Of a stretch of DNA of 64,000 bases, positions 252 through 22,006 are shown one piece after another (position 1 is the first letter of the stretch; each line of letters opens with the position of its first letter). This stretch comes from a virus (taxonomy: Duplodnaviria > Caudoviricetes), in IMG/VR virus record IMGVR_UViG_3300048855_000167, positions 9,951 to 73,950 of that record. One strand, written 5' to 3'. The notes below the pieces were generated by a model. That model had not been told where the DNA came from, did no database searches, and saw only the letters and a program-made list of their open reading frames with translations. The position numbers and the translations under genes were made by a program.

Positions 252-278
252 CCCCGGCAACAATGCCCCAAATGGAGA
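252..278 (+). promoter_or_regulatory. Start-associated hairpin motif, copy 1 (CCCC GGCA ACAA TGCC N6 GGAGA)
   Basis: Read directly; matches eight minus-strand copies between 9.1 and 22.0 kb. Confidence 0.75.
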
Positions 279-284
279 AAACCA

Positions 285-470
285 ATGGAAAAGACATTCC
301 AATTCGAGCTCGACGACAAGGTCAGGCTCGAGCTCAGCAACGAGACCGGCATGATCATCGGCCGCGCCGAATTCACCACCAAAGATCCCCAATACCTCGT
401 TCGTTACAAGGCTGCCGACGGTCGCCTGGTCGAAACGTGGTGGGATGAGGACGCGATCCTCGCGGCCTGA
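285..470 (+). CDS. Small hypothetical phage protein
   Basis: 61-aa ORF with GGAGA Shine-Dalgarno. Confidence 0.8.
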   Translation: MEKTFQFELDDKVRLELSNETGMIIGRAEFTTKDPQYLVRYKAADGRLVETWWDEDAILAA

Positions 471-478
471 CCCGTGTC

Positions 479-859
479 ATGGCCTACCGCCTCTCACGCT
501 ACCAGCAAGCAAGGCTGGATGCCGCATTCGCACGAGCTGATCGCGAGTCGGCGCTGAGGAAGCAGGACGGGCGCTGCAAGTACTGCCTCTGCAAACTCAC
601 CTACAAAAACGTCACCCGGGACCACGTTGTTTCCCGGGCGACAGGTGGCCTCGACCACCGAAACAACATCGTCGCGGCCTGTCTCCGGTGCAACCGGCTC
701 AAGGGGTCGATGTCGGTCAAGCTGTTCTTGCGTCTGATAACTCACCCGCTGCCAGGCGAGCACTTGGTCTACCGGATGATCTGGTTCGACCGTCGGCTCA
801 ACATCGCGCTCGATGAAATGGAAGCAAATGTATTTCGGGCTGTGGGGATTAAGCGTTGA
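479..859 (+). CDS. HNH endonuclease
   Basis: CKYC...TRDHVV...GG...NIVAACLRCNRLKG, an HNH/zinc motif pattern. Confidence 0.9.
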   Translation: MAYRLSRYQQARLDAAFARADRESALRKQDGRCKYCLCKLTYKNVTRDHVVSRATGGLDHRNNIVAACLRCNRLKGSMSVKLFLRLITHPLPGEHLVYRMIWFDRRLNIALDEMEANVFRAVGIKR

Positions 860-1428
860 GCTCCTGGTTTTTCGATCCGCTGTTGCCGCTCTTCTACGAG
901 CTCATCTCGATCGACGCGCCGTGGGGCTTTGATCTCTACAGTGAAGAGGGCGCTCGCAAGAGCGCTCTCGCGAAATACGACCTGATGACGGACCAGCAAA
1001 TCCTGGACCTCCCTGTCGGAAAGTTAGCCTCGATGAACTGCCTGCTCTACTGCTGGGCTACCGCGCCGCAGCTCCCGCTCGCGATCGAATGCGTGAAGAG
1101 GTGGGGCTTCGAATACAAGTCCGTCATGATGTGGCGGAAGACCACCGCTAAGGGCAAGGTCCGCATGGGGACCGGCTATCGCGTCCGAACCACCGGCGAG
1201 CTCGTCGTCGTCGCCACGCTCGGCAACCCAAAGCAGACCTTCATACCGCAAACAATATTCGACGGCGTAGCGCGCGAGCACAGCCGCAAGCCGGAGGAAT
1301 TCTATCAGCTCTGCGACCGTGTGATGCCGCATGCCCGCCGGGCCGACGTCTTCTCCCGGGAGAGGCGCCCGGGGTGGCACAACTTCGGAAACGAGTCCTC
1401 GAAATTCAACGTCGAGGTGGCAGCATGA
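856..1428 (+). CDS. MT-A70 family DNA N6-adenine methyltransferase
   Basis: IDAPW (DPPW-like) motif, LYCWAT, WGFEYKS, HSRKPEEFY, DVFSRERRPGWHNFGNE. Confidence 0.9.
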   Translation: MSSWFFDPLLPLFYELISIDAPWGFDLYSEEGARKSALAKYDLMTDQQILDLPVGKLASMNCLLYCWATAPQLPLAIECVKRWGFEYKSVMMWRKTTAKGKVRMGTGYRVRTTGELVVVATLGNPKQTFIPQTIFDGVAREHSRKPEEFYQLCDRVMPHARRADVFSRERRPGWHNFGNESSKFNVEVAA

Positions 1429-2069
1429 AAAGCGCGGCCATTTTCCTCTGCGACACGACCGGGAATATGGCGCGGCCGTGGGCCGAGGCCGGCGTGGAAT
1501 GCTACTGCGTCGATATCCAGAACGGGTTCAAGCGCAGCAAGGCGATCGGCAACATCCATTTTGTGTGGGGTGATGTCCGCAGCTGGACGCCCCCGCGCCG
1601 CAAGATCCTGTTCGTTGCGGCATTCCCGCCGTGCACGCACGTCGCCAACAGCGGCAGCCAGCATTTCGAGCAGAAGGGTGGCGTGATGCTGCGCGACGCG
1701 CTCGAGGTCTTCGAGGCGTGCCGTATGGCAGCCGCGTGGTCGGGCGCCCCATACTGCATCGAGAACCCCAAGGGGTTCCTGTCGAACGTGCCGCACATCG
1801 GCAAGCCTGACTACATGTTCCACCCGTGGCAGTTCGCCGGGTTCCACAGCGCCGATCACTACACCAAGGAAACCCATCTCTGGACCGGCAATGGCTTCGT
1901 CATGCCGCTTCACCGGCCTGACTACGAGAACCCGACGCCTCCGGACAATCGCATCCACCTGGCGGCCGCCTCCGGTGCCCGCGGCGATGCCCGAAGCAAG
2001 ACGCCGATCGGCTTCTCCCGTGCCGTGTTCGAAGCCAACGCGCCAGCATCAATCAGGAGAGCAGCATGA
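1425..2069 (+). CDS. Short phage C5-cytosine DNA methyltransferase-like protein
   Basis: ATGA overlap with upstream stop; FLCDTTGNMARPW (motif I-like), FPPCTH catalytic PC, IENPKG. Confidence 0.8.
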   Translation: MKSAAIFLCDTTGNMARPWAEAGVECYCVDIQNGFKRSKAIGNIHFVWGDVRSWTPPRRKILFVAAFPPCTHVANSGSQHFEQKGGVMLRDALEVFEACRMAAAWSGAPYCIENPKGFLSNVPHIGKPDYMFHPWQFAGFHSADHYTKETHLWTGNGFVMPLHRPDYENPTPPDNRIHLAAASGARGDARSKTPIGFSRAVFEANAPASIRRAA

Positions 2070-2665
2070 ACTACGATCCCAAGGGTGCTCCCGGTTCATA
2101 TTTCGTCTTCGATCCAGGTCGGACCACGGGCTTCGCATATTGCCTCGCCGGTGGCGAGCGGATGCGGAGCGGCACCTGGCGCTTCAAGCAAGAGTCGCCG
2201 GGCGCAGCCTATGCCGAGTTCGTCGGATACCTGAAACGAATGTTGACGGGTCTGCCAGATCCGCTGGTCGGCATCGAACTGATGACCGTCGTCGACCATG
2301 GCGAAAACGGGAAGTCGGCGATCGACGCGCAGCAGGTGATGTTCTCGTCGGGCTGGCCGACCCATGCGCAGACGCTTTGCCACACTATGGGCCTTCGCGA
2401 GCCGCAACTGATCGCCATCTCAACCTGGCGTTCGAAGACGCACCGCAAGATGCGGGTGCCGGACAGCATGAAGAATTTCAAGCAGGCCGATAAATCGAAG
2501 TGGCTGAAGCAGCAGGCCAAGGACTACTGCGACCGGCAGGGGTGGGGCTACAACTCGGAAGACGAGGCGGAAGCGCTCTGCATGCTCGACGCTCTGCGCA
2601 TGATGCACGAGCCGTCATACGCCTTCGACAAGGGCGCGTCCTACCAGCAGGAGTCGTTCCTGTGA
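2066..2665 (+). CDS. RuvC-like Holliday junction resolvase/nuclease
   Basis: N-terminal FDPGRTTGFA, acidic GIEL, C-terminal DEAEAL. Confidence 0.7.
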   Translation: MNYDPKGAPGSYFVFDPGRTTGFAYCLAGGERMRSGTWRFKQESPGAAYAEFVGYLKRMLTGLPDPLVGIELMTVVDHGENGKSAIDAQQVMFSSGWPTHAQTLCHTMGLREPQLIAISTWRSKTHRKMRVPDSMKNFKQADKSKWLKQQAKDYCDRQGWGYNSEDEAEALCMLDALRMMHEPSYAFDKGASYQQESFL

Positions 2666-2988
2666 CCGGTCGCATTCCGTGCATCAACCCCTGCTGCAAG
2701 CGCACGGCCTCGGCTGAGAAATACAGCTGCGAGATCATTTGCGGGAAGTGCTTCCGCAATCTGCCGGTCGAGATGCGCAACACGCACCGCTTCTACTGGC
2801 GCCAGCTCCGCAAATGGGAGCGCCGCGTCACCAAGACCACCGACGAACTGAAGCGCGAGCGCATGAAGTCGGTCCGCGACATGTGGTCGGACAAGATCGC
2901 CCGCCATTGGGACGAGCAGATCAAGGCGACCTTCAGCAGCGAGAAGCCCGAAGGCATCGACGCCTTCCTCGAAGAGATGGGCCTGTAA
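2662..2988 (+). CDS. Hypothetical protein with zinc-finger-like N-terminus
   Basis: GTGA-coupled start; CINPCC...CGKC. Confidence 0.7.
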   Translation: MTGRIPCINPCCKRTASAEKYSCEIICGKCFRNLPVEMRNTHRFYWRQLRKWERRVTKTTDELKRERMKSVRDMWSDKIARHWDEQIKATFSSEKPEGIDAFLEEMGL

Positions 2989-6082: not shown

Positions 6083-6904
6083 GTGGCTACCGGACAAGGC
6101 ATTCTCGAAAGACTGAAGCGCGCGAGGGAGATGCCGCCGGCCGACACTAAGGCCGGAGTCCTTCCGCTCGTCGCCTTCTATGGCCGCGATCCGCAGCAGG
6201 AGGAATTGCGCAACCGCTTCTACGCCGCAATGGAACGGGCGATGGCATTCCGAGAGGACGACTTCCCGGACCAGATGGGCGGCGGAAAGAAACCGCACTG
6301 GACATTGGTCGACCTTCGCGATGCGATCGCGGTGGTCAATGCCAATTCCAGCCCGATCGAGTTCCTGGTATCGCGCGGGGAGATGCAGACGGGCAGGGAT
6401 CTCGAGGGGATGGGTGGTGTTCGCTTCCACACTGCACTTCGCCTGCGCGATCTCATCGACGGGGGCAGGGTGAACGGCATGAAGTCGCCGAACCTCGAGG
6501 GTGGCGGCGGAGGGGGCGGCAAGTCGGCCGACATCCGCGGCTATCAGCTCGACTGCATCAAGCTCCTCGGCCGGGTGAAGGCCGACATGCCGGAGCAATG
6601 GATATTCCCCATGCTCGAGTCGGTAGTGTTCATGGATGAATGGATGGACCTTTGGCCGGTGAACGACGGTCCGGTAGCAAGGAGGGAGGCGCTGAGGAAG
6701 CGGCGGCTGAAGACAATTCAGGCCCTCCACTTCGCTCTCGATCGAGCAAGCCTTAGCCTGGGGTACATGCAGGAGAATGATTTCAGGCAGCGGTGGGGTC
6801 TTGACGCACCAGCCCAGCCTTACGCAGCTCGTCGTCATACTCAGGCGTCCACGGCTTCAAACCAGCTCGGACTGCTGACATCGCGAGGCGCTCGGAAACG
6901 GTGA
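6083..6904 (+). CDS. Hypothetical protein, last gene of the replication operon (possible transcriptional regulator by position only)
   Basis: 273-aa ORF with Gly run; position analogous to Q-like genes. Confidence 0.65.
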   Translation: MATGQGILERLKRAREMPPADTKAGVLPLVAFYGRDPQQEELRNRFYAAMERAMAFREDDFPDQMGGGKKPHWTLVDLRDAIAVVNANSSPIEFLVSRGEMQTGRDLEGMGGVRFHTALRLRDLIDGGRVNGMKSPNLEGGGGGGGKSADIRGYQLDCIKLLGRVKADMPEQWIFPMLESVVFMDEWMDLWPVNDGPVARREALRKRRLKTIQALHFALDRASLSLGYMQENDFRQRWGLDAPAQPYAARRHTQASTASNQLGLLTSRGARKR

Positions 6905-7043
6905 GCTCTCGCTTGCCGGTGGAGATCAGGCTGGCAGTGTTGCTGCCAGTGATCCCCATCAGCTCCGCGGCCTGGCTGATTTGCCGGCCGTTGAAGCCGA
7001 GCCGGGCAACCCATACCCTGAAGTCATTGATTGCAGTCTTCAT
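6783..7043 (-). CDS. Small HTH DNA-binding protein
   Basis: GGAGG Shine-Dalgarno; ISQAAELMGITGSNTASLISTGKR HTH-like. Confidence 0.75.
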   Translation of the reverse strand: MKTAINDFRVWVARLGFNGRQISQAAELMGITGSNTASLISTGKRELTVSERLAMSAVRAGLKPWTPEYDDELRKAGLVRQDPTAA

Positions 7044-7513
7044 GTTTCCTCCTGCATGTCCTGAGTAATCTTCTCGGCGACATCGAAGTTGGCCTTGTTC
7101 ATCGCCAACAGCTTCGCAAGAACGTGGACGGAGTGCGGGATGTCCTGCTCTCCGTCCAACCATTTCATGACCCTGCTTTGCGGCACGCCGACCAGCTCGG
7201 CGAAGTAGGTGGGGGTCGTATTCATCTCGTCAATGAGCACAGCCAGCTCGGCGCCGGTCAGCCGGATGTAGCCGCCGGCCTTCCTGGTATCGATCGTGCG
7301 GCTTTCGTAGAGGCGGATGACCGCCTCCATCGCCGCAATTTCCGCCATCCGCTCGTCGTCGAAGGTGCGGACGCCGTTGTCGTCTCGTACCAAGTCAGGG
7401 ATCAGCCCGGGTAAGGCGAACTGGCCGGCGAACCGGCCGTTGCGGGGTAATGCCTTGGCTATAAGGCGGGAGGCAGGCTTGATGCTCATGGTGATCCCTG
7501 TGTTCTGCAGCAT
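7040..7513 (-). CDS. XRE-like HTH protein
   Basis: C-terminal TPTYFAELVGVPQSRVMKWLDGEQDIP. Confidence 0.75.
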   Translation of the reverse strand: MLQNTGITMSIKPASRLIAKALPRNGRFAGQFALPGLIPDLVRDDNGVRTFDDERMAEIAAMEAVIRLYESRTIDTRKAGGYIRLTGAELAVLIDEMNTTPTYFAELVGVPQSRVMKWLDGEQDIPHSVHVLAKLLAMNKANFDVAEKITQDMQEET

Positions 7514-7525
7514 GTCTGCTTTCTC

Positions 7526-9145
7526 TTAATCTATTTTAGGCCAAGTCGGCCAATCGTATCGGTCACGCTTCTTGCCGTTTTTGCTGACGGTGATGAAGCC
7601 GGTATTCACATGCGTCCCGACCGACGAGAACGAGTTAGGCGGGAGATCTTCCCACCGTGCGCCCATATCCTCCATCAGCTGGCGGAACGCGACCGACTTG
7701 TGTGTCTGTCGGAACTCGGTGCCGGCCGACATGATGGCGATCAACTTCCCGTCGGGCTTGAGGAAATTCAGGGCGTGGACGACATGGTCAATGTCCCGCT
7801 CCCGATCGAAGGGTGGGTTCATGACCACCAGGTCGTACAGCCCGGTGGTCTCTGGCTCGATCGACATGAAGTCCGCATTGAAGACGCGGCCAAGCTTCCT
7901 GGCTTTCAGATCCAGGATCAGGTGCGGCTGGATCTCGATGCAGTCGACGACGTGGTCGACGCGGTACCGCTCCTGGTCCCAGCTCTTTTCGTAGTCGGGG
8001 TAGCACGCGACGGCGAGGTTGCCGGTACCCGCAGACGGCTCCAGGATCTTCAGGCGATCGCTCTCTTTCGAGCGGTGCCAGACGGGAGAGTTGCGGAGGA
8101 TACGCTGCGCAGCGGCCGCCGGGGTAGGGTAGAAGCCGAAGTAGCGGGCAGGTGCCGTCTTCGCCTTCTCCGGGGAAAGCGGATCGTCGTCCACCTTGCG
8201 GCCATCGGCCAGCACTTCGCCATAGTATTCGCCGATCAGCTTGTTCACCTTGGCGACGAGAGCCTTCCGCGTAAACCATAGGTGAGCGTTGCCGTTCTTG
8301 AATATGCGGACCTTGAAATACTCGGTCTCAACTTCGGTCTGGCGAGCGCCGGTCTGACCGTGGCGGGCCAGGTCGATCTCGCCGATGGTCTTAGTGAAGT
8401 AGTCGGCGGGCCGCTTCTGGCGCCGGGCTGCTTCATTTTCCTCGTCCTGCTTGCGAACCTCGTTCAGCTTGCCGTCAAGGATGGTAAACGTCCGCTCGAT
8501 ATCGATCAGCGTGGAGCGCTCGTCCTTGTGGGAGCTCCAGTTCCAACTGCCGTAATCATTGAAGCAGCGGGTGAGAATCACGCGGGCTCCAACCTTGAAC
8601 CCGTCGTGCGATCTGAAGCGACGGTCGAGCTTGGCGAAGGCGTTCGCCATGCCGCGCCGGAAGATCATGTCGGCGTCCATCATGAACTGCTCGAGCGTCG
8701 CGAGGACGTTTTCGACGGTCACCGGCGGCATGCCCTTGGCGGCCTGCTCCTCGGTGATCAACTGACCGGGCTCGGTCGGCTCTTCGATGATGTGGGACAT
8801 CTGCTCGCGCAGCTGATCCTTCGCCTGTCGATCCATCAGGTGCTCGAGCTCGGTGTGGCTGACCACCCATGCCCACACATTCAAGTCGATGATGTGCCGC
8901 TTCTCCCGCATGTAGTCGTCGAGGGGCGAGCGGCTGATCGGGTGGAGCGCGCGCCGAGTGTCGACCTCATACGCCGCGTTGTAAGCGTTGGTGCGGGGGA
9001 AGGCGCGCTTCGCCATGTCGATCGCTGCGAGCTCGGCCTCGTGAGCCTCTTCGATCTTGGCGTGGGCGATTTCGAATAACTCGAGCGCCTTGTCCCGATA
9101 GGCGACGATCTGCTCGACCGTGTTGCGGGGCACAACTGCGTTCAT
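7526..9145 (-). CDS. DUF4942-domain N6-adenine DNA methyltransferase
   Basis: GFYPTP, ILEPSAGTGNL, VMNPPF motifs; N-half with FKIGARVIL-like and RIFKNGNAHLWF DUF4942 signature; GGAGA Shine-Dalgarno before ATG at 9145. Confidence 0.9.
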   Translation of the reverse strand: MNAVVPRNTVEQIVAYRDKALELFEIAHAKIEEAHEAELAAIDMAKRAFPRTNAYNAAYEVDTRRALHPISRSPLDDYMREKRHIIDLNVWAWVVSHTELEHLMDRQAKDQLREQMSHIIEEPTEPGQLITEEQAAKGMPPVTVENVLATLEQFMMDADMIFRRGMANAFAKLDRRFRSHDGFKVGARVILTRCFNDYGSWNWSSHKDERSTLIDIERTFTILDGKLNEVRKQDEENEAARRQKRPADYFTKTIGEIDLARHGQTGARQTEVETEYFKVRIFKNGNAHLWFTRKALVAKVNKLIGEYYGEVLADGRKVDDDPLSPEKAKTAPARYFGFYPTPAAAAQRILRNSPVWHRSKESDRLKILEPSAGTGNLAVACYPDYEKSWDQERYRVDHVVDCIEIQPHLILDLKARKLGRVFNADFMSIEPETTGLYDLVVMNPPFDRERDIDHVVHALNFLKPDGKLIAIMSAGTEFRQTHKSVAFRQLMEDMGARWEDLPPNSFSSVGTHVNTGFITVSKNGKKRDRYDWPTWPKID

Positions 9146-9150
9146 GCTGG

Positions 9151-9177
9151 TCTCCTGTAGTGCCATGCTTGGCGGGG
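9151..9177 (-). promoter_or_regulatory. Start-associated hairpin motif, copy 2 (CCCC GCCA AGCA TGGC N6 GGAGA)
   Basis: Read directly, upstream of the DUF4942 methyltransferase. Confidence 0.8.
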
Positions 9178-9208
9178 TGGTGGTAAGGTCGCGCGAGGAG
9201 GCGCGACG

Positions 9209-9415
9209 ATGGTGCAATGCGAGGATTGCCGAGATGCGGGATGGGTGTGCGAGGCTCACCCGACAAAGCCCTGGACCGGGACGCACGGGTGCGGGTGCGG
9301 CGCAGCTGGAATGCCATGCCCGCATTGTTCTCAGGATCTTGCTTGGGACAAGCCGCCGGACACGTCGAAGATCTTTAGATCCGTGACGCACTTAGCCGGC
9401 AAGAAGGTGAATTGA
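9209..9415 (+). CDS. Small Cys-rich (zinc-binding) protein
   Basis: GGAGG Shine-Dalgarno; CEDC..WVCEAH...CGCG..GMPCPHC. Confidence 0.7.
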   Translation: MVQCEDCRDAGWVCEAHPTKPWTGTHGCGCGAAGMPCPHCSQDLAWDKPPDTSKIFRSVTHLAGKKVN

Positions 9416-9450
9416 CCTCCGTCAGTGTGGACGGCCGGTCGGGCTATTCG

Positions 9451-12662: not shown

Positions 12663-12695
12663 TTCGATCTTCTTTGAGTTTGTCGGATGGTCGGG

Positions 12696-13856: not shown

Positions 13857-13862
13857 TGATAG

Positions 13863-13889
13863 TCTCCGTGGTTCGCATGATTGCGGGGG
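13863..13889 (-). promoter_or_regulatory. Start-associated hairpin motif, copy 3 (CCCC CGCA ATCA TGCG N6 GGAGA)
   Basis: Read directly, upstream of dnaN. Confidence 0.8.
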
Positions 13890-13955
13890 GCGTACCGGGG
13901 GCGATTGACTCTCTTCGCTCTCCGGTTGAGAAACATCTCAAAGAGAGGGTATTTT

Positions 13956-14276
13956 ATGCGCGCATTGTTGGTTGTTGTTTTCTTCGCAATCGCCGTCCCG
14001 GCGGCAGCATTGTCAGATCTGCAGAGGATGGAGCTAAGCCACAACCTCGGCATGACCCTTGCCTCAGAGGAACTTTGTGGTCTGCATTATGATCAGGATG
14101 CGATCGCAGCTTTCATAGAAAAGAAGGTGCCGGCAGACGATATGTCATTTGCCGGCTCGCTCAACATAATGACGATAGGTTCCGGGGTTCAGATCAAGGA
14201 AATGTCCCCGTCCTCGTTGACCGCGCACTGCGCGCAGATGAAGCGCGTGGCCAAGAGTTACGGCTTTATCAAGTGA
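13956..14276 (+). CDS. Secreted hypothetical protein (moron)
   Basis: Signal peptide MRALLVVVFFAIAVPAAA; opposite strand to its neighbours. Confidence 0.75.
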   Translation: MRALLVVVFFAIAVPAAALSDLQRMELSHNLGMTLASEELCGLHYDQDAIAAFIEKKVPADDMSFAGSLNIMTIGSGVQIKEMSPSSLTAHCAQMKRVAKSYGFIK

Positions 14277-14285
14277 CCAGGCCAC

Positions 14286-15452
14286 CTAGACGGAAATGCT
14301 GATCGGCTCACCGAACGGCAGATCCGCCGTCAACTCGTCGAACTTGCGCGGGTCGCCGTAGACCCCCCACAAAACCGGGATGTCCGGGTCGTCGCCGAAG
14401 TCGTAGACCTCCAGGTCGGTGAGGTAGATGATGAAGCGTGCATCCGGGTACCGCTCCATGATGACCCTGAAGGAGTCGCGGAATGCGGTGCCGCCGCCGC
14501 CAACCGGGCGGAGCTTGAGCTCGTCCCCGTTCTCGAACTCCTCGATCCCCTGCACCTTGGCGTCGGCGTAGATGACGGTCAGCTTGTCGACCGCGCCCTC
14601 CTGGAATGCACCGTTGATTTCCGCGGCGAACGCCTTGCAGGGGACATCGTCGAAGACGGAGCCGGAGGAGTCCTGCACGATAACGCCGTGGCTGACGCCG
14701 TCACTGATCAAGCCCGGGGTGATGTAGCCGAGCGGCAGCATGCGCCGGTTCGGCTTAGCCCAGCTGAAATCCCTGGTCATGGACTCGTCGATGAAGCGGC
14801 GGAGCACCGCGCGCCAGTCCACCTTGGGGCGGAGCAGCTCTTCCACGAGCTTCGCGATGTTGGCGGGTAGTTTGCCGGCCTGCGCTCCCTTAGCAGCCAT
14901 GGCGGCCTGCTGGATCTGCACGTTCATCTCCGCCTCGAGCTCGGCAATGGCCGACTGGTCATGCGGTGCGCAGCCGTCGAGCACACCGCCGCAACCGCCG
15001 CCGTCCATGCTGTTCTCGTCGGAGTCGTCGCCGTTGTTCTCATCGTCGAGGATTCGGTAGATTTCCTCAGCGGAGAGCCCAGTGAAACGCGGCTCAAGCA
15101 GCCCGCATTCCGGCATCTTGCCGACCTTGCACTCGACCAGTTCGCCGTTGATGGCGTAGTCGGCGGCCTTGTTCCAGCGCCCGGGCTTGCGGTGCTGCCG
15201 GCGGGTGTGATGCTTCAGCGCGTTGTGCATGACCTCGTGAGCCAGGACGAAAACCAGCTCGTCCTTCTTCAGGTCCATGACGAACGGCGTGTGGTAGTAG
15301 AGGTGGCGCCCGTCGGTCGCCATCGTGTCGATGCGCGGGTCATTGGTCGCATCGATCTTCTTCAGCTGCAGCATGAGCACGCCGAAGAACGGGTGGTCCC
15401 ATAGCAGGGCCGTCTGCGCGGCGAGGATCTTGTCTTGGACGTTCATGGTCAT
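14286..15452 (-). CDS. Putative metallopeptidase + vWA domain protein (DUF2201-like)
   Basis: TMATDGRHLYY, LAHEVMH (HExxH), PKVDWR, DSSGS MIDAS-like, GGGGTAF, YLTDL. Confidence 0.9.
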   Translation of the reverse strand: MTMNVQDKILAAQTALLWDHPFFGVLMLQLKKIDATNDPRIDTMATDGRHLYYHTPFVMDLKKDELVFVLAHEVMHNALKHHTRRQHRKPGRWNKAADYAINGELVECKVGKMPECGLLEPRFTGLSAEEIYRILDDENNGDDSDENSMDGGGCGGVLDGCAPHDQSAIAELEAEMNVQIQQAAMAAKGAQAGKLPANIAKLVEELLRPKVDWRAVLRRFIDESMTRDFSWAKPNRRMLPLGYITPGLISDGVSHGVIVQDSSGSVFDDVPCKAFAAEINGAFQEGAVDKLTVIYADAKVQGIEEFENGDELKLRPVGGGGTAFRDSFRVIMERYPDARFIIYLTDLEVYDFGDDPDIPVLWGVYGDPRKFDELTADLPFGEPISISV

Positions 15453-15751
15453 GTCCTTCGTGCATGGTTGCGGGTGATGGAGGCGGCAATGCAGTCGGCG
15501 ATCACTTCCGCCGGCAGTATTCGGTTGGCGACTTCGGCCGACAGGCTAGGACTAAAGGTCCAGTAGTCAGTGGCGAGTTTGGAAGGCACCTTCTCAAGCT
15601 CGAAGCATCTTCGCCGGATGAAATACCAGAGATAGTAGGTGCGGATGCCTCGTTTGATGCCCCATAGCTGTGCGTGAACTGACCGGTCGGGGTTATCGTC
15701 ATCGAGAGTCAGAGCCGCTAGCCACGCTTGCTTGCGGGCTTCGCTTGTCAT
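15449..15751 (-). CDS. Hypothetical phage protein
   Basis: ATGA-coupled at both ends (MTSEARKQAW...). Confidence 0.65.
   Translation of the reverse strand: MTSEARKQAWLAALTLDDDNPDRSVHAQLWGIKRGIRTYYLWYFIRRRCFELEKVPSKLATDYWTFSPSLSAEVANRILPAEVIADCIAASITRNHARRT
15462..15474 (-). promoter_or_regulatory. Start-associated hairpin motif, copy 4 (CCC GCA ACCA TGC, then AAGGA)
   Basis: Read directly, upstream of the vWA gene and inside the 3' end of the preceding ORF. Confidence 0.65.
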
Positions 15752-16029
15752 GCCGCCGGCTTCATCGACAGCCGGGTGATGTGCGCCAGCTGGTCGGGCA
15801 GCAAGGCGGCGCGAAACTCCCCAATCCTCTCGTCCGTGATGCCTCTGCCCATCTCCTTGCCGTGCCGGAACTTCACGAATTTTCGAAGGGTAAACTCTCG
15901 CACTTTCGGCTCGTAGGTGAGGCGGTACCGGCTTCGAGGATATTTGCGGGAGACGGGATCGAAATAGAAACGCACCGTCCCATCCTTCTCCTTCGACCAT
16001 GGCGCTTTGAAGCGGCCTTTGATGTCCAT
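15748..16029 (-). CDS. Hypothetical basic phage protein
   Basis: GGAGG Shine-Dalgarno; 93 aa. Confidence 0.7.
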   Translation of the reverse strand: MDIKGRFKAPWSKEKDGTVRFYFDPVSRKYPRSRYRLTYEPKVREFTLRKFVKFRHGKEMGRGITDERIGEFRAALLPDQLAHITRLSMKPAA

Positions 16030-16032
16030 GGT

Positions 16033-16302
16033 TTACCTCCTTGTGATTGCCAGCGCCGTCGCCTTCGCGATCTCGGCCGCCGAGAGTTTAGATTTCAGGA
16101 CGTTGGTGATGGTGTCGTCCATCGTTAAAGTGGTGTCGCCGTCGATAAACATCGTCGGGTGGAGGCAGTCGCCGGCCTCCGGTGAAATGCCCGCGGCGGC
16201 AAGTCCGGCCCGGTTCCGGCGCCCCTCGACTGACTGCTTGCCGGTGTGGCTCGCGGAGAACTTCCTCGCCGACGGCCCCCACACAGCCTTAAATTTAGGC
16301 AC
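16033..16302 (-). CDS. Hypothetical phage protein
   Basis: GAGG Shine-Dalgarno; coupled to upstream gene. Confidence 0.6.
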   Translation of the reverse strand: MPKFKAVWGPSARKFSASHTGKQSVEGRRNRAGLAAAGISPEAGDCLHPTMFIDGDTTLTMDDTITNVLKSKLSAAEIAKATALAITRR

Positions 16303-16663
16303 CCATCTTCCCTCCTCGGATTGAGATCGCCGTCACCTCGGCGATATCTTCGGGCCTGAGCATCGACTTGAGTGCCACTGCCACGCTGCCTTTTGGGAGC
16401 ATGCTGCGCAGGATGGCGATCGGGCGGTAAAGGTCCGCGAGATCGTTCGTGTGAACCTTGTCCCAATGGTTCACGGACAAGGCGGTCGAGGTGAATTTGC
16501 GCGTCCTCATGCTGAACGCGAGGTGATATCTGCGTAGTTCACCGGCGGCTGTCACGCCGATGAACTCCCACTTGCAGATCTCGATCACGCGGTCCGGGAA
16601 GGAGCCGGAATCACTCGTCTTGTACGAGATCGGCCCGGCAATCCAATGCAGGCCTTTATCCAA
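16295..16663 (-). CDS. Hypothetical phage protein
   Basis: Overlaps the AAA stop; 122 aa. Confidence 0.65.
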   Translation of the reverse strand: MDKGLHWIAGPISYKTSDSGSFPDRVIEICKWEFIGVTAAGELRRYHLAFSMRTRKFTSTALSVNHWDKVHTNDLADLYRPIAILRSMLPKGSVAVALKSMLRPEDIAEVTAISIRGGKMGA

Positions 16664-17663
16664 GCGTCACGTCCTGGTTCCGCACTGCCCAATCCGTGAA
16701 GGTTTGGGTGTGCGAAAGCCCTGCGTCACGGCGGACAGCGTCGACCGCGAACATGATCTCGAACTCACGGGCGGGGATGCGTCGGATGTAGGCCATGCCG
16801 TTCTCGAACGTCTTGGCATCGACGCGCCGGCCGAGCGCCGCCGAGATTGCGAACCGTGCCGAAGGATCTTCGGGAAGCGGCGCGCTGTTCGGGTTGGCAA
16901 GAACCAGGTCCAGCGAGGGGAGCTTCTGGTAAACCCGAATGAAGCCTTCCAGCTCGCCGGCCGCACCGTCGCCGACGACGCCCGAGATCAGCGACAGGCG
17001 ACGTGCCGAGTCCTTCTCGATGTATTTGGCCGCTTGCTCCCATGACCGCGGCGTCGGGAATGCACGGTCGTCGGACGACTCCGGCATCTTGTGGATGAGG
17101 TGCGGCCGGAAGCGGAGGAAGGCAATCATGATCGGGTCCATGCCGATCTTGTTGAAGTGCTCGACATGCACGTTGTCGTGGCCGGCGCTGGTGTCGGCCT
17201 CGATATCAATGTGAGCGAAGCGGTTGGCGAGTGCGGTCGGCATGCGCTGTGCTGCTGCGCGGTCCGATTGACGATTGCCGGCGGCAACCACGCGCCAGCC
17301 ATCGGGCAGCTTGTAGTCGCCGACCCTGCGATCGAGGACCAGGCCGAACATGGCGGCCATCATGGACGGCGGTGCGGCGTTGAGCTCGTCGAGGAAGAGG
17401 ATGCCTTCCGGACCGTCGCGCTCCACCTGCGGAAACTCGTCGGGCACCTTCCATTTCGTGGTGTCGCCGGAGATATCGGGAAGGCCCATGAGGGCAACCG
17501 AGTCACGGGTGGAAGCGCGGAAGTCGATCAGGCCCCACTTGCGTTCCGTCTTGATCTGCACGGTGATTGCGGACTTGCCGACGCCGGGCGGCCCCCACAT
17601 AAACGCTGGGGTATCTTCGTCGAGGTAGTCGTTCAGATTAAGAGCGGCTGTCTTAATGTGCAT
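16656..17663 (-). CDS. MoxR-like AAA+ ATPase
   Basis: WGPPGVGKS Walker A, ILFLDELNAA Walker B, VAAGNR, ALANRF, FPTPRSWE. Confidence 0.92.
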   Translation of the reverse strand: MHIKTAALNLNDYLDEDTPAFMWGPPGVGKSAITVQIKTERKWGLIDFRASTRDSVALMGLPDISGDTTKWKVPDEFPQVERDGPEGILFLDELNAAPPSMMAAMFGLVLDRRVGDYKLPDGWRVVAAGNRQSDRAAAQRMPTALANRFAHIDIEADTSAGHDNVHVEHFNKIGMDPIMIAFLRFRPHLIHKMPESSDDRAFPTPRSWEQAAKYIEKDSARRLSLISGVVGDGAAGELEGFIRVYQKLPSLDLVLANPNSAPLPEDPSARFAISAALGRRVDAKTFENGMAYIRRIPAREFEIMFAVDAVRRDAGLSHTQTFTDWAVRNQDVTLG

Positions 17664-18031
17664 TGGTCGTCTCCTTGTGTGCCATGAGTGGCGATGGTGG
17701 GAGTGATGCCGAACCGCACCTGAGTGACGGCGGCGATGTCTAGGGGCAGAAGCAGCGTGAGCGCTGCATCGGCCAGTTTTTCGCGAGGGAAGCGAGGGAA
17801 GCTTTCGCTCGGGTAGGCTGACAGGTCAGAGGGGATGCGGTAGTCGCTGAAGGGGGCGCCGGGCTTGTTGACCGGGCGACGTCTCGCCTTCAGTTCCTTG
17901 TCGTGCTTCCAGAGACCCATTTCATAGCGGTCGATGCCTGCGCCATCGTCAAGGACGAAGGCAAACCAGAACTTCAGCCGCAATCCTGTCACCTGCCTGG
18001 CATAGGGGCCGATCAGGAGTCCGGTGGGCAT
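17633..18031 (-). CDS. Hypothetical phage protein
   Basis: Start MPTG immediately after the upstream stop. Confidence 0.55.
   Translation of the reverse strand: MPTGLLIGPYARQVTGLRLKFWFAFVLDDGAGIDRYEMGLWKHDKELKARRRPVNKPGAPFSDYRIPSDLSAYPSESFPRFPREKLADAALTLLLPLDIAAVTQVRFGITPTIATHGTQGDDQCTLRQPLLI
17670..17697 (-). promoter_or_regulatory. Start-associated hairpin motif, copy 5 (CCATC GCCA CTCA TGGC N6 GGAGA)
   Basis: Read directly, upstream of the AAA gene. Confidence 0.75.
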
Positions 18032-18032
18032 G

Positions 18033-18395
18033 TCATTTCCAAATGATCTCATCCGGGAAGAGGACGGCCGGGCCGCAAATGGGCGGCAGTTCCTCGGGGT
18101 CCATCGCTGGGCGCTGGGTCATCATGTTGTTCCGGTAGATCTCGGTCGCCCTCACGTTTCGGATGTGGCGTTCGTTGATGTTGCTGGTCTCACCGACGAA
18201 CATGTCGCGGCGCTCGCCTTCGTAGAGGACGGCAACGTGCTCGACGGGCTCGTCAAACGTGTCCGGCAGGACGCGCTTGATCCAGTCGGAGATTGTCTCT
18301 CTGGTGAAGCGTGGCTCCATTTTGCGCTCTTTCGTCTCACCGAGCGCCGGGATGATCAAAGCCCGGGCAGACGTTCCTGTTCTGAGGCCGGTCAA
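18033..18395 (-). CDS. Hypothetical phage protein
   Basis: GGAGA plus in-frame TTG at 18395 (alternative ATG start MEPRF). Confidence 0.6.
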   Translation of the reverse strand: MTGLRTGTSARALIIPALGETKERKMEPRFTRETISDWIKRVLPDTFDEPVEHVAVLYEGERRDMFVGETSNINERHIRNVRATEIYRNNMMTQRPAMDPEELPPICGPAVLFPDEIIWK

Positions 18396-18421
18396 TGGGC
18401 TCTCCTTTGTGTGATTGCGAG

Positions 18422-18461
18422 AAAAAGGGCGCCTCCGATATCTCATTTCCGGAAGCGCCCT
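18422..18461 (-). terminator. Intrinsic terminator-like hairpin
   Basis: AGGGCGC...GCGCCCT stem followed by a T-run on the minus strand. Confidence 0.5.
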
Positions 18462-18569
18462 CGTTGCGGCGTTACTAGTGGACTACATGCGCGCCCTCCG
18501 TTCGTTATTGACATTCAGGGTGAGCACCCCTGCCTTCCGGTCTCCACACCTACCGGGCAGGGATCGGGG

Positions 18570-19466
18570 TTAGGCGAGGAAGTCGGACACGGAGTCCAGA
18601 ATGCGTTGCGCCTCGGCCGCGGTGTCCTTGCGGATGGCAGCGTCTTCCTTCAGGGCGGCGGCATCGTATTTCGTGAGCGCCTTCAGCCGCCGGCCCAAGG
18701 CGTCCAGCTCGGGCGAGCCGACGATGTTGAGCGACGGCATGACGCTAATCAGATCGGCGATGTTCTCGACGAGGCTGGAGCGGAAACCGCCGGTTCGTTC
18801 GCCGGGGGTGAAGCTGTTGAGGCGGTCGACCATGCGCTCGGTGAGTGTGGCAATGCGCTGATAGACGTCTCGGACCGCGTTCTCGGTCGCCTTCTGCAGC
18901 TGCTCCTCGATGTCGGCCCGGATGAGCGCGGCGTGCGCCTCCGACATGTCGACGCGGAAATCGGCGGACGAGGGCACCGGCAGGACCGAATAAACGATGC
19001 CGAACTTTTCCCGGATCTCGTTGCTGGTCGGGTAGTCGGCGGCCTTGAACAGCTTGCCCATGCGCTTTTGCGCGTCGGTGACGTGCTGGTCGAAGTGGTT
19101 CACCAGCTTGTCCACCTCGCGCTGAAACTTGGCGGACTGGACGCGCATCCACGCGGTGAAGGGGAGATAGCCGTCGGCGCTGATGATGCGGCCGCCGTCG
19201 TTGAGCCACGGCAGGGTGCGCTCATAGAAGCCGTTGCGCGTCTCGCTGACGAGCGTCTGAATACCGGCGAGCGCTTCCTTGCTCACCAGCAGCTTGTTAA
19301 CGCGGGAGGCGTCGGACGCGGCGTTGTGGGAGTCGTTGAGCTCCTGCGTCACCTGACGGTCGAGGCGGCGGCCGGACCACTGCGAAATCGTCACGCTGAC
19401 GATCATCGCGCGGCTGGCGAGGGTGGAGGTGGAGGCAGAGAGGGTAGCTGGGGTCATGGAATTCAC
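18570..19466 (-). CDS. DUF3150-like phage protein
   Basis: MIVSVTISQWSGRRLD...NKLL...RTLPW...DYPT...REKF pattern. Confidence 0.7.
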   Translation of the reverse strand: MNSMTPATLSASTSTLASRAMIVSVTISQWSGRRLDRQVTQELNDSHNAASDASRVNKLLVSKEALAGIQTLVSETRNGFYERTLPWLNDGGRIISADGYLPFTAWMRVQSAKFQREVDKLVNHFDQHVTDAQKRMGKLFKAADYPTSNEIREKFGIVYSVLPVPSSADFRVDMSEAHAALIRADIEEQLQKATENAVRDVYQRIATLTERMVDRLNSFTPGERTGGFRSSLVENIADLISVMPSLNIVGSPELDALGRRLKALTKYDAAALKEDAAIRKDTAAEAQRILDSVSDFLA

Positions 19467-19472
19467 GTTCAG

Positions 19473-19500
19473 TCTCCTTTGGTTGCCATTATTGGCGGGG
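19473..19500 (-). promoter_or_regulatory. Start-associated hairpin motif, copy 6 (CCCC GCCA ATAA TGGC N7 GGAGA)
   Basis: Read directly. Confidence 0.8.
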
Positions 19501-19505
19501 CTGGA

Positions 19506-19694
19506 TCAGTCTTTGACCTGGAGGATTGACTCGATTTGCTCGTCCTCCGGGTCGCTCTCCTCCCATTCGATTCCGTTGACATGGCGGAAGCCTTTGGCGA
19601 CCTGGAACCGGGCCGCTTCCATGCTTTCGTCTTCGATGGTGAGTTCTGCTGTCAGGTGGCGGATGGCGCGCACCTGCACGATAAAGGTGGGCAT
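19506..19694 (-). CDS. Small acidic hypothetical protein (62 aa)
   Basis: MPTFIVQV...EWEESDPEDEQIESILQVKD with GGAGA Shine-Dalgarno. Confidence 0.75.
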   Translation of the reverse strand: MPTFIVQVRAIRHLTAELTIEDESMEAARFQVAKGFRHVNGIEWEESDPEDEQIESILQVKD

Positions 19695-19699
19695 TGTCG

Positions 19700-19726
19700 T
19701 CTCCATGGGTGCCATAGTTGGCGGGG
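19700..19726 (-). promoter_or_regulatory. Start-associated hairpin motif, copy 7 (CCCC GCCA ACTA TGGC N6 GGAGA)
   Basis: Read directly. Confidence 0.8.
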
Positions 19727-19764
19727 AAAGAAGGAACCTACACGGTAGGCTGCGAGGGGAGAAG

Positions 19765-20076
19765 TCACGGGGCGAAGGCGATGGCGCGCGCGGCGTCAAT
19801 CTCCTCGCGTCGGCGCATGAACGAATCCCAACGGCCGATCATGTCCAAATCGGCATGGCTGTACCATGTGCGGCCGTCGGCGAGCTTCGTTGCTTTCGCC
19901 AATACGCCGGCGGCCGTTATCACGCCGTCAAGCTCACCCGAGGGCTTGAAGATCTTCACTTCCTTGCCGTGCACCTCGTAATAACCGGACGCGGTGCCAT
20001 CGGGATTGAACAGGGTGTCCACCACGGCGCGCTTGCCGCGCACGAAGGTGCGGCCGTTAAGCTGGAACGACGTCAT
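19765..20076 (-). CDS. Hypothetical phage protein
   Basis: MTSFQLNGRTF...; overlaps the upstream gene end. Confidence 0.7.
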   Translation of the reverse strand: MTSFQLNGRTFVRGKRAVVDTLFNPDGTASGYYEVHGKEVKIFKPSGELDGVITAAGVLAKATKLADGRTWYSHADLDMIGRWDSFMRRREEIDAARAIAFAP

Positions 20077-20290
20077 GACCGGGCTCCCACAGGATTTGCA
20101 AAACCTCCTCCAGATCCTCGACGTGAGGCGGGAGGCGGACGGCGCGCAGCTCATGCAGCGTGATGCCGGCGAGCGTGGCGCGGGCATGCATCTGTTGCGC
20201 GCACTCGACGGCCGCGGGGCCGTTCGGGAATGGCAGCGATAACGGGACGAAGTCGCACCAGATGACGGCGAAAATCTCACCTTTGTCCAT
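20057..20290 (-). CDS. Hypothetical phage protein
   Basis: GAGGA Shine-Dalgarno; 77 aa. Confidence 0.65.
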   Translation of the reverse strand: MDKGEIFAVIWCDFVPLSLPFPNGPAAVECAQQMHARATLAGITLHELRAVRLPPHVEDLEEVLQILWEPGHDVVPA

Positions 20291-20297
20291 TTAGTCC

Positions 20298-20618
20298 TCA
20301 CAGGCTTATGCGGATCGACACGGAGAAATCCACCGGAGCGATTTGCGGTGGCGGGCGGTAGATCGGCGCGGGTTTCGGTTTAGGCGCGCGTTTGGCGGCC
20401 TTGACGGGATTCGGGCGCGGCAACGGTGCCGGGCCAGCGATGGGCGGTTCTGCGAACAGCTCCGGTGCTGGCGCTGGCGGAGCAACAACGGGTGCCAGCG
20501 CCACAGGGGCGGGCGCTGGAACGGGTGCGGGCTTGCTGTTGGAGATTATGCCTGTGGCGCCTTGGAAGAGCACGAGGGCGACGGTCGCAAGCGTGGGGAA
20601 GCCGCCAGCGTGACTCAT
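20298..20618 (-). CDS. Pro/Ala-rich membrane-anchored hypothetical protein
   Basis: ATGA-coupled; hydrophobic N-terminus then PAPVPAPAP-rich. Confidence 0.6.
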   Translation of the reverse strand: MSHAGGFPTLATVALVLFQGATGIISNSKPAPVPAPAPVALAPVVAPPAPAPELFAEPPIAGPAPLPRPNPVKAAKRAPKPKPAPIYRPPPQIAPVDFSVSIRISL

Positions 20619-20848
20619 GCGGCGGTTCGCTCGCGGGACGGCAGGAAGATCTCCCACGCTTCCCGGGTCGACAGATAGCGCTCATAGGCGCCACGAAGCG
20701 CGGTGCCTGGCTCGCCATGGGCGCGCGGGGTATAGCGGACGTCGCCAGCCCACTCGCGCGGGAAGGTGCGGCGGATCTCGTCCATCCATTCCTCATCGGC
20801 GGCGAGGTGCGCGGCGTAGGCGGCAGCCATGGGGGTGATGTCAGGCAT
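20615..20848 (-). CDS. Hypothetical phage protein
   Basis: GAGGAG Shine-Dalgarno; 77 aa. Confidence 0.7.
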   Translation of the reverse strand: MPDITPMAAAYAAHLAADEEWMDEIRRTFPREWAGDVRYTPRAHGEPGTALRGAYERYLSTREAWEIFLPSRERTAA

Positions 20849-20999
20849 TTCGGATCTCCTCTCGTGCTTCGCGCAGAATGCGCCAGACGTCCTCTTTCAC
20901 CTCTGAATTGGTGGGCTCGCGGCCGAGGCGGGCGGTAAGGCGGTTCCAGATTGTGTTTTGGTTGTCATTCCGGAACGTGATGCTGACAGTGATCGGCAT
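20841..20999 (-). CDS. 52-aa hypothetical protein missed by the ORF track (MPITVSITFRNDNQNTIWNRLTARLGREPTNSEVKEDVWRILREAREEIRNA)
   Basis: Translated by hand; GGAGA Shine-Dalgarno and motif copy 8 upstream; stop overlaps next start. Confidence 0.75.
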   Translation of the reverse strand: MPITVSITFRNDNQNTIWNRLTARLGREPTNSEVKEDVWRILREAREEIRNA

Positions 21000-21003
21000 G
21001 GGA

Positions 21004-21027
21004 TCTCCTGTTTGCATGATTGCGGGG
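21004..21027 (-). promoter_or_regulatory. Start-associated hairpin motif, copy 8 (CCCC GCA ATCA TGC N5 GGAGA)
   Basis: Read directly. Confidence 0.8.
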
Positions 21028-21350
21028 TGTCGCGCGGCGCTGATATCGGGGGCAGGCAGCGGCGCGCATGGTCCTGCCGGTGGAATGTGAGCGGGCTTTA
21101 ACGGTTCCCGCGCATGCGTTGCCTCCGTTATGCGGTTGATCGGCGGGCGGTGGATGACGTGTGAAAACCCACCTATGGAGGCGGATCTTCAGGTTCGGGC
21201 AGTAAGGGCGCGGCCAAGGCGGCGGACATGGTGAACAGGAACGCGCGGCGGGTCATCATGTGGGCTTAATCGCTTCCAGATATTCGACCCAGCGAAGCGC
21301 GACGACCCATAGGGCGAGGATGAGCGCGGCGCCCTTTCGTAGAGACATGG

Positions 21351-21374
21351 AAAAGGGGAGGCTAATGCCTCCCC
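21351..21374 (-). terminator. Intrinsic terminator
   Basis: GGGGAGGC-ATTA-GCCTCCCC-TTTT on the minus strand, after 21404. Confidence 0.65.
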
Positions 21375-21403
21375 CCATCGATTACGGACCAACCGCGTAT
21401 CTG

Positions 21404-21973
21404 TCAGGCGGCAATGTCCATTTCCGCCTGCTCCGGTGCGGCCGCCGGTGCCGTCTTGACGGCCTTCGCCTTGGCAGGCTTTTCCACCTTGACCGGTGCG
21501 ACGACAACGTTCGGCGTCTTAGCCAGCGTCAAGGCACCCTTGACCGCCTGCAGAACGCGAGGAGACGCACCCTTTTCCGTCAGGGTCGAGACCACTTTTT
21601 CCAGATAGGCGACTTCATCGAATTCCTTTTCGGACGTCGCCTTGCCTGCCGAGCGTTCATAGTTGGCAGGTGCGATTTCCATCGCCTCATCCATCTTGGA
21701 AGCCTTCCCCTTAACGTAGGTGAAGACACTGGTTGCCTTGTCAAACGAGACCTTGCCGAAAGCCGTCGACCACGAAACGAGACCCTTGCGGTAGTTGACC
21801 GGAGTCACCGCATAAAGCGCGTTGAGGTATTTCGGATCGTTGTGCAATTCGACATGGTTGAGTGCCGAATATGCAAGCTGATGCTCGCGCTCCGAAAAGG
21901 TCGAAACGACCTTGCCGAAACCGTTGATTGCCGAATTGAGCTTGGAACCAGTGAGAACAACGAACTTAGCCAT
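21404..21973 (-). CDS. Hypothetical early phage protein with Lys/Ala/Pro-rich tail
   Basis: GGAGA N7 ATG; strong ORF of 189 aa. Confidence 0.8.
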   Translation of the reverse strand: MAKFVVLTGSKLNSAINGFGKVVSTFSEREHQLAYSALNHVELHNDPKYLNALYAVTPVNYRKGLVSWSTAFGKVSFDKATSVFTYVKGKASKMDEAMEIAPANYERSAGKATSEKEFDEVAYLEKVVSTLTEKGASPRVLQAVKGALTLAKTPNVVVAPVKVEKPAKAKAVKTAPAAAPEQAEMDIAA

Positions 21974-21980
21974 AACCATT

Positions 21981-22006
21981 TCTCCATTTGTGCCATGATT
22001 GGCGGG
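21981..22006 (-). promoter_or_regulatory. Start-associated hairpin motif, copy 9 (CCC GCCA ATCA TGGC N6 GGAGA)
   Basis: Read directly. Confidence 0.8.

Follow-up and report, generated by a model that had tools for sequence, protein, structure and literature searches.

A start-associated mini-hairpin with covarying stem precedes early genes in a lineage of Hyphomicrobiales proviruses

Repeated signals associated with gene starts in the early regions of phages have been described for fifteen years without a mechanism. The start-associated sequences (SAS) of the Cluster K mycobacteriophages, reported in 2011 (PMC3203893) and surveyed in 188 genomes (PMC12699233), still had no assigned function in 2025. 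The element described here is closest in kind to SAS, and it was found in a stretch of 64,000 nucleotides (hereafter the window) that comprises bases 9951-73950 of one 73,950-bp virus record (IMGVR_UViG_3300048855_000167; Caudoviricetes). At nine sites of the window the same modules follow one another, i.e., a C-run, a 12-nt hairpin, an A/C-rich spacer, the Shine-Dalgarno (SD) sequence GGAGA (AAGGA once) and a start codon (Table 1). Both SAS and this hairpin occur in 10-20 copies per genome, only in the non-structural half, in one orientation and immediately 5' of start codons, with a preference for ATG; both precede genes of varied families, are conserved across subgroups and are absent from the host genome (matches to our hairpin being rare in host DNA). 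Nevertheless, SAS is an unstructured 13-bp sequence that contains the SD, with the consensus GGGATAGGAGCCC (up to two deviations), whereas the element studied here has its SD outside the conserved part, 2-8 nt 3' of the hairpin; the conserved block, formed by the C-run, SSCR, ANYA and UGSS, has no similarity to that consensus. The ESAS inverted repeats of the mycobacteriophages lack covariation and were interpreted as sites in the DNA, in contrast with the strong covariation seen here, and the hosts of SAS phages are Actinobacteria whereas those of the hairpin are Alphaproteobacteria. The analogy with SAS made in a preliminary description of this DNA is therefore apt, in kind and not in sequence. 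No published description of this particular hairpin was found.

Other described systems resemble the hairpin in part. The promoter-early stem-loop (PeSL) cassettes of T4-type phages (Arbiol et al. 2010, PMC2839356) are, like the hairpin, short regulatory repeats ahead of many non-essential early genes, and recombination between PeSL copies explains insertions, deletions and replacements between close relatives; likewise, in six pairs of genomes carrying the hairpin, homology blocks end at positions -4 to -8 of the stem. On the other hand, a PeSL is made of a strong sigma-70-like promoter and a terminator stem-loop, and the SD-proximal hairpin is accompanied by neither: no sigma-70-type promoter was detected on the coding strand of the leftward arm (6500-24800), a weak negative given that the E. 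coli consensus was used, and the stem of 3-4 bp is followed by an A/C-rich tract with no U-run. In T4, RegA acts on the translation-initiation regions of approx. 30 early mRNAs, and RegB cleaves GGAG sequences between early genes (Uzan and Miller 2010, PMC3014915); such coordinated, early-specific post-transcriptional control has the same logic as the one proposed below. RegA sites are however A+U-rich, unstructured and overlap the AUG, and RegB recognises the SD, whereas the signal described here is structured, G+C-rich, 5' of the SD and 12-20 nt from the start; no homologue of RegA (PHROG and Pfam, early proteins scanned) or of RegB was detected. The stoperators of Cluster A phages such as L5 are, as cited in PMC3203893, copies of the operator of the phage repressor located in both genome arms. 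In that citation they share with the hairpin the many short asymmetric sites, the orientation bias relative to transcription and the location in short intergenic regions; stoperators show no pairing covariation, and our motif, unlike in sequence to the palindrome of repressor type found in this phage, occurs only in the early arms, with no late-arm copies. REP/REPIN elements are dispersed over the host chromosome in hundreds of copies, frequently as inverted pairs, together with a gene for the RAYT transposase; the motif departs from them, given that its matches cluster in prophage only, in one orientation, with no transposase among the proteins scanned.

The anatomy of the element was defined with a gap-free alignment of 73 distinct copies from six proviruses, all of them on the coding strand just 5' of an SD and a start codon, a placement that was also the criterion for their selection. 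The stem, S-S-C-R paired with U-G-S-S, has 3-4 bp. Its freely varying pair, 11-20, is G-C in 45 copies, C-G in 26 and U-A in two, and it is unpaired in none; the outermost pair, 10-21, is G-C in 32, C-G in 23 and U-A in two, and the remaining 16 cells are unpaired, C.A in most cases. All copies have C-G at pair 12-19, and the loop-closing pair 13-18 is A-U (62 copies) or G-U (11 copies). Overall, 94.5% of the cells are paired, versus 72% in column shuffles (0 of 500 reached the observed value) and 12-37% when the partners were slid. The weight matrix used to collect the copies scores columns independently, and therefore it cannot create this pairing correlation. Four positions are invariant (C12, A17, U18 and G19), and the loop reads A (59/73), any base, Y (66/73) and A (73/73). 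Immediately 5' of the stem there are four C-rich positions where G hardly occurs, the spacer starts with A and continues with A or C, and upstream of position -10 of the motif no conservation was seen in the 73-copy alignment. Measured from the 3' end of the hairpin, GGAG is 2-8 nt away, with a mode of 6 (30/73), and the start codon 12-20 nt away, with a mode of 17; this codon is ATG in 60 copies, GTG in nine and TTG in four. Folding predictions made in the native context gave a mean pair probability of 0.77, with -4 to -5 kcal/mol for the 4-bp forms and -1.7 for the 3-bp form. This pattern persists in relatives with 51-64% GC and just 36-56% protein identity. The covariation of the stem and the constrained distance to the SD, which had been noted previously from the copies of the window, are thus borne out in the larger set.

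All nine copies were found at the places claimed in the preliminary description (which gave the low-coordinate end of each minus-strand copy), both by direct reading of the sequence and with a 22-nt weight matrix, a regular expression of the full architecture, and a covariance model built from the motif. The weight matrix scored them at 21-30 bits, while no other site of the 73,950-bp record exceeded 12.6; among the sites ranked next there is a tenth, weaker copy, with SD and ATG, at L001:684(-), outside the window. The regular expression (a C, then a stem whose one variable pair has to be complementary and whose 3' arm holds ATG, followed by 2-8 nt, GGAG or AGGA, 4-10 nt and a start codon) had exactly nine matches in the window, versus a mean of 0.03 and a maximum of 1 in 300 first-order Markov simulations; a looser 13-nt pattern gave 12 matches versus 4.1 expected. 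The short spacer and AAGGA of the copy at 15462, the CTCA loop and CCATC leader of the copy at 17681, and the two half-copies (16036-16051 and 18402-18419, both on the minus strand) are also as first described. One of the latter, at 18402-18419, is considered a decayed copy because the orthologous site in a provirus related at 94% (G001) has a full hairpin. Scans with the weight matrix and the covariance model detected no copy in the structural or late region (24.6-51.7 kb), in agreement with the earlier remark on late leaders; these leaders have the same A-rich GGAGA context and no hairpin. The statement that the motif marks the first gene of translationally coupled clusters holds in part: seven copies are preceded by a gap of 39-430 nt, whereas those at 15462, 17681 and L001:684 are embedded in the 3'-terminal part of an upstream open reading frame (ORF) that overlaps or abuts the next start.

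Conservation of the motif extends over a lineage of proviruses from the Hyphomicrobiales. At least ten related proviruses or viral contigs, with 5-24 copies each, came out of a protein-anchored search and of pattern scans run on viral contigs. With a strict threshold, scans of entire records gave 8-17 copies in each of five proviruses, a figure that rose to approx. 24 at most when the threshold was relaxed; another five records (51-64% GC, with early proteins 36-70% identical) have 5-16 each. These copies are located in the non-structural arms, nearly all of them just 5' of a gene start and on the coding strand. Approximately 10 of some 90 matrix matches with at least 14 bits lack an SD and a start codon at the usual spacing, and some of these, at 19-24 bits, resemble real copies, e.g., those with a T-A stem close to provirus ends. 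Phages that share only the DUF2201/AAA pair of genes (35-39% identity) do not have the motif. The covariance model was also run on five complete host genomes (5-7.7 Mb), where nearly all matches of 22 bits or more fell inside prophage; in a Rhizobium genome of 7.0 Mb, 14 matches were found within 38 kb and one elsewhere. Among 150 other genomes of the same order, isolated single matches were seen in ten genomes with no cluster, in searches that scored a subset of the first-look candidates and that may miss weak copies. The proposal of a real, phage-specific, coordinated element restricted to early genes is supported by the covariation, the SD spacing and the absence from late genes and from host leaders, where a similar frequency had been regarded as evidence against it. 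Near one end of three related proviruses, at G001 1805(-), G002 73906(+) and G005 1560(-), the outer pair of the stem is T-A (TCCA/TGGA), which makes a third stem type; in these copies a weak SD follows that almost abuts the ATG, and the equivalent region is missing from the record studied here.

We propose that the motif is a cis-acting hairpin of the early polycistronic mRNAs, exposed between the G-free C-run and the single-stranded A/C-rich spacer, and that through one trans-acting factor it would control translation of the adjacent cistron; we give this proposal about an even chance of being correct. The factor, which could be encoded by the phage or be a conserved component of the host at the ribosome platform, would read the hairpin by both shape and sequence and would govern how translation starts at the neighbouring SD in the entire set of early cistrons, so that the motif would act as a multi-target translational operator or enhancer with a logic like that of the early-mRNA regulons of T4 RegA and RegB; the data do not tell if the effect is positive or negative. 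An mRNA element is favoured because the freely varying pair is always complementary, the orientation is strictly sense, the distance to the SD is narrow, the flanks are poor in G, and some copies are inside upstream coding sequences. The absence of detectable internal promoters, together with terminator-like sites that are not enriched in the arm, fits with a single long transcript, an operator-type palindrome is located at the head of this arm, and the invariant bases and the A-N-Y-A loop conserved across diverged phages argue for a sequence-specific reader. A bolder version, which we hold only tentatively, is that the hairpin is the operator of a new post-transcriptional regulon of temperate alphaproteobacterial phages: a phage-encoded or phage-recruited ribosome-associated protein would bind the A-N-Y-A hairpin beside the SD/anti-SD helix and switch 10-24 early cistrons as a block, and the module would make genes portable as cassettes. 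If a dedicated reader exists, it would represent a new way for a temperate phage to time or silence a 16-kb host-takeover block (the clamp, methyltransferases and the AAA/VWA pair) and a compact, portable translation-control part for alphaproteobacteria. A 12-nt hairpin with covariation, four invariant bases and a fixed SD distance is a much cleaner handle than earlier start-associated signals, and culturable strains of Rhizobium, Ensifer, Brucella/Ochrobactrum and Ancylobacter carry it as lysogens.

Several observations weigh against the proposal of a translational hairpin. The 3-bp forms are only marginally stable by themselves, and in the three of ten copies that lie inside upstream ORFs the hairpin could be melted by translating ribosomes. 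Orthologous leaders tend to retain the stem type and most of the covariation is seen among paralogous copies; therefore, the independent compensatory events are fewer than the cell counts suggest. Wobble pairs are symmetric, with 11 G.U at the loop-closing pair versus approx. 13 C.A (U.G on the other strand) at the outermost pair, so that they do not discriminate between strands and were discarded as an indicator. Finally, no RNA-binding protein was identified among the conserved early proteins, most of which have no family match, and the assignment of the element to mRNA and not to DNA is itself inferred from the sequences. Accounts of the hairpin that do without a protein reader were also considered. 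The ATG of the hairpin was rejected as a start codon or as the opening of an upstream ORF, since its frames relative to the gene start are distributed 21/26/26 and the lengths of the putative upstream ORFs follow no pattern. A trans-acting antisense RNA found no support in a search with the consensus, to which the sole complementary sequences are the motif sites themselves. No Rfam family matched the motif at its gathering score, and in the window only a tRNA was matched.

The wobble statistics are compatible with a site read in the DNA, either a phage early promoter whose transcripts would start just 5' of GGAG or an asymmetric, stoperator-like operator that silences or times the early arms. 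Temperate phages are known to have families of many early promoters, or of many repressor sites, that are nearly identical, and the L5 stoperators cited in PMC3203893 are short, asymmetric and biased in orientation; by inspection of the alignment, A14...A17-T18 can be read as a weak -10-like AAnnAT approx. 7 nt 5' of the purine run, and a conserved 157-aa gene at the end of the arm resembles MqsA-type proteins with a zinc ribbon and a helix-turn-helix (HTH). However, perfect complementarity of the freely varying pair (73/73) is not expected if a protein reads the duplex, a -35-like element is lacking along with any other conservation upstream of -10, and the transcripts would be nearly leaderless. 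The motif also differs from the repressor-type palindrome of the phage, some copies are inside coding sequence where genes overlap, and the spacing follows the SD and no other landmark; for these reasons a DNA site is considered unlikely, although it deserves to be kept in mind. A site for RNA processing or stability seems to us equally hard to favour, and is rather improbable. In such a case a phage or host endoribonuclease, e.g., RNase E, would cut the early transcript in the C-run or the spacer, leaving hairpin-capped or otherwise defined 5' ends; this would suit a long operon without detectable internal promoters, with G-poor single-stranded RNA on both sides of a hairpin that mostly heads translation units, and it has precedents in the RNase III sites of T7 and in the cuts of T4 RegB at GGAG (PMC3014915). 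Nevertheless, RNase III would need a hairpin larger than 12 nt, the genes of the arm include no recognised nuclease (an HNH gene is present only in the other operon), and a mere processing site has no need of a tight distance to the SD. The preliminary description had offered an RNA-binding protein site, a processing site and a DNA operator as forms of a coordinated control element; the phage-specific, early-gene element stands, and the evidence leans towards a role in RNA, with a role in DNA less probable.

It could also be that no reader is involved and the hairpin, with its unstructured flanks, only insulates the SD from upstream pairing, making cassettes portable. The SD is not more paired with its native flank than with shuffled flanks (0.38 versus 0.46), a result that also led us to reject a thermometer or repressor helix in which the pyrimidine-rich 5' flank would sequester the SD; the flanks are depleted in G, and the element is located at the boundaries of mosaic cassettes. 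Since any stable hairpin would suffice for insulation, four invariant positions and an A-N-Y-A loop kept over more than 100 copies in diverged phages would be difficult to explain, and the late genes as well as the foreign insert at 9451-12662 do without a hairpin; insulation is therefore regarded as improbable. Least credible of all is that the motif is only a recombination junction, or a selfish copy-and-paste mini-repeat, with no role in expression. The coincidence of block ends with the motif (2-4 copies per genome pair with an end 4-8 nt 5' of the stem, versus 0.07-0.2 expected for random positions), the RecT and PDDEXK exonuclease of the phage and the shuffling mediated by the PeSL repeats of T4-type phages (PMC2839356) speak for it, but a mere junction would have no use for maintained pairing or for a fixed distance to the SD, the proteins scanned include no transposase or RAYT-type gene, no copies were seen elsewhere in the host, and, with random positions as the null, the coincidence comes in part from the placement at the 5' ends of genes.

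A role as a seam between cassettes can nevertheless be documented in addition to the proposed translational role. When this record was compared with its 94% relative, four homology blocks of the arm ended 4-8 nt 5' of a stem, even where 300-400 nt of intergenic DNA are present further upstream; homology with G001 ends 8 nt 5' of the stem at copy 2 (9162), and blocks end at -4 at copy 3 (13874) and at -5 at copy 6 (19485). Five other genome pairs showed 2-3 coincidences each versus 0.07-0.2 expected, with P values from 0.0155 to <0.0005 over the six pairs, values that refer to a null of random positions and not of gene starts, so that part of the coincidence follows from the location of the motif at the 5' ends of genes. 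The 94% relative has two extra hairpin-headed genes exactly between two copies. In the record studied here, the segment 9451-12662 (-), with a lower GC (0.56), a family-2 glycosyltransferase and three ORFs, has no hairpin and no counterpart in any relative; located precisely between two cassettes headed by hairpins, it resembles a foreign segment that was inserted recently. As judged from these alignments, the motif marks gene-cassette boundaries, because homology blocks end at its 5' edge, and the suggestion of a shared junction for the shuffling of cassettes is thereby supported. The motif and the SD form a direct repeat of 25-30 nt ahead of many genes, and recombination between such repeats is a plausible by-product, given that the phage encodes RecT and an exonuclease; the repeat would then be the point of cassette gain, loss and swap. 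The RecT recombinase and the PDDEXK (DUF3799) exonuclease with a SAP motif, at L001:2763-5130 (-) in the leftward early operon, constitute a phage single-strand-annealing system.

Candidate readers were sought among the early proteins. A 162-aa immediate-early protein is encoded just 5' of copy 1 by the third gene after a Cro-like gene (L226:691-1179 (+), genome 9690-10178, ending at window position 228). It has an RMF-like C-terminal domain, and 31 of 32 homologues match PF04957 (best E 1.3e-8). RMF binds the 30S subunit at the anti-SD, and for this reason such a domain next to copy 1 is suggestive of a reader. It was nevertheless rejected because two prophages that encode it (Nitratireductor and Filomicrobium) have no motif copy, and therefore gene and motif are not linked by co-occurrence; a profile search with the protein found no RMF structure. 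One source labels a homologue UPF0335, and the gene is widespread in Hyphomicrobiales prophages, motif-less ones included. The 189-aa product of the first gene of the arm is not a recognisable reader either: its AlphaFold model (pLDDT 74.7) is helical with a small hairpin and has no significant fold match in the PDB, the protein has no sequence match in Pfam, NCBIfam or the PDB, and its Atlas neighbours are all unnamed. Co-occurrence in the distant DUF2201/AAA phages gave no candidate, since they are motif-less and only those two genes are common. At the other end of the arm, where the preliminary description had pointed to the HTH proteins at 6783-7513 as candidate binders, the 157-aa product of the last gene (7040-7513 (-)), with 56-97% identity in relatives, is the MqsA-like protein mentioned above (predicted-structure comparison, TM 0.53), and it also resembles Aca2-like HTH proteins; a second conserved ORF (6783-7163 (-)) overlaps the 3' part of this gene in another frame. 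The A-N-Y-A tetraloop presumably resembles the operator of MS2-type coat proteins, a lead based on the loop consensus as the one feature in common. The MS2-type operator carries a bulged A two pairs below the loop and belongs with a coat-protein gene; the 4-bp stem described here has no bulge, and no such protein was detected.

Table 1. Hairpin copies and related features in the window. Bits are scores with the covariance model built from the motif, which recovered the nine copies at 23-32 bits.
Feature	Position	Strand	Form	Bits	Context
Copy 1	252..267	+	C-run and GGCA/UGCC hairpin	27.0	Heads 61-aa ORF (285-470), rightward early (replication) operon
Copy 2	9162..9177	-	GCCA/UGGC	28.4	Heads DUF4942 methyltransferase gene (7526-9145)
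Copy 3	13874..13889	-	CGCA/UGCG	30.5	Heads dnaN (12696-13856)
Copy 4	15461..15476	-	3-bp GCA/UGC, short spacer, AAGGA SD	23.3	Heads DUF2201 VWA/metallopeptidase gene (14286-15446)
Copy 5	17681..17696	-	GCCA/UGGC, CUCA loop	25.2	Heads AAA_5 ATPase gene (16656-17663); overlaps upstream ORF 17633-18031
Copy 6	19485..19500	-	GCCA/UGGC	27.3	Heads conserved 298-aa gene (18570-19466, GTG start)
Copy 7	19711..19726	-	GCCA/UGGC	26.8	Heads 62-aa ORF (19506-19694)
Copy 8	21013..21028	-	GCA/UGC	27.6	Heads 52-aa ORF (20841-20999)
Copy 9	21992..22007	-	GCCA/UGGC, nearest to consensus	32.2	Heads conserved 189-aa gene (21404-21973), near head of leftward arm
Decayed copy	18402..18419	-	Two 3'-arm bases lost		5' of SD and TTG start of conserved 137-aa gene
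Half copy	16036..16051	-	5' arm and loop only		5' of SD of 93-aa ORF (15748-16029)
Palindrome	22761..22775		15-bp perfect palindrome, repressor-operator type		Head of leftward arm; 1 match versus 0.04 expected

Two minor observations concern the hairpin itself. A second hairpin of 5 bp is predicted approx. 10 nt 5' of the C-run of copy 9 (window 21975-22040 (-)), and hairpins at the same place in two relatives (G004 and G005) have different sequences. The covariance model also gave a weak match of 16 bits (E 0.05), with the core GCAUGCAUGC, at window 61586-61613 (+), outside the early arms; it is probably due to chance.

The record belongs to a temperate phage of root-nodule-type bacteria, and its relatives are classed as proviruses. 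Hosts could be named for some of these: Rhizobium sp. CF080, which harbours the 94% relative, Ensifer sp., Brucella tritici, B. pecoris and Ancylobacter sp. Among cultured phages or plasmids, neither megablast nor tblastn gave a match to a close relative. In the region 5' of the window there is a CI-type repressor (HTH and S24 peptidase) and a leftward operon that encodes, besides RecT and the PDDEXK exonuclease, an SMC-like ATPase and an RNase T-like exonuclease. The rightward early operon continues into the window with an HNH protein, two DNA methyltransferases, a primase and a DnaB helicase. The second leftward arm, of 16 kb (approx. 22.7 to 7.0 kb, minus strand), contains the genes for the 189-aa and 298-aa proteins, the AAA_5 ATPase, the DUF2201 VWA/metallopeptidase, DnaN and the DUF4942 methyltransferase, as well as many small ORFs. 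The structural module on the plus strand encodes the small and large terminase subunits, the portal, a protease-major-head fusion, the tail sheath, the tape measure and tail proteins, and from this gene content the late region is of the myovirus type. The fusion, of 737 aa, joins a head-maturation protease with the major head protein (window 28939-31152 (+); phrog_4523, E 4e-194). At the low-GC right end of the record there is an ATP-dependent DNA ligase-like gene (window 55508-56413 (+)), and near it a tRNA-Arg(TCT) (window 62495-62571 (+)) that points to a possible attachment-site region.

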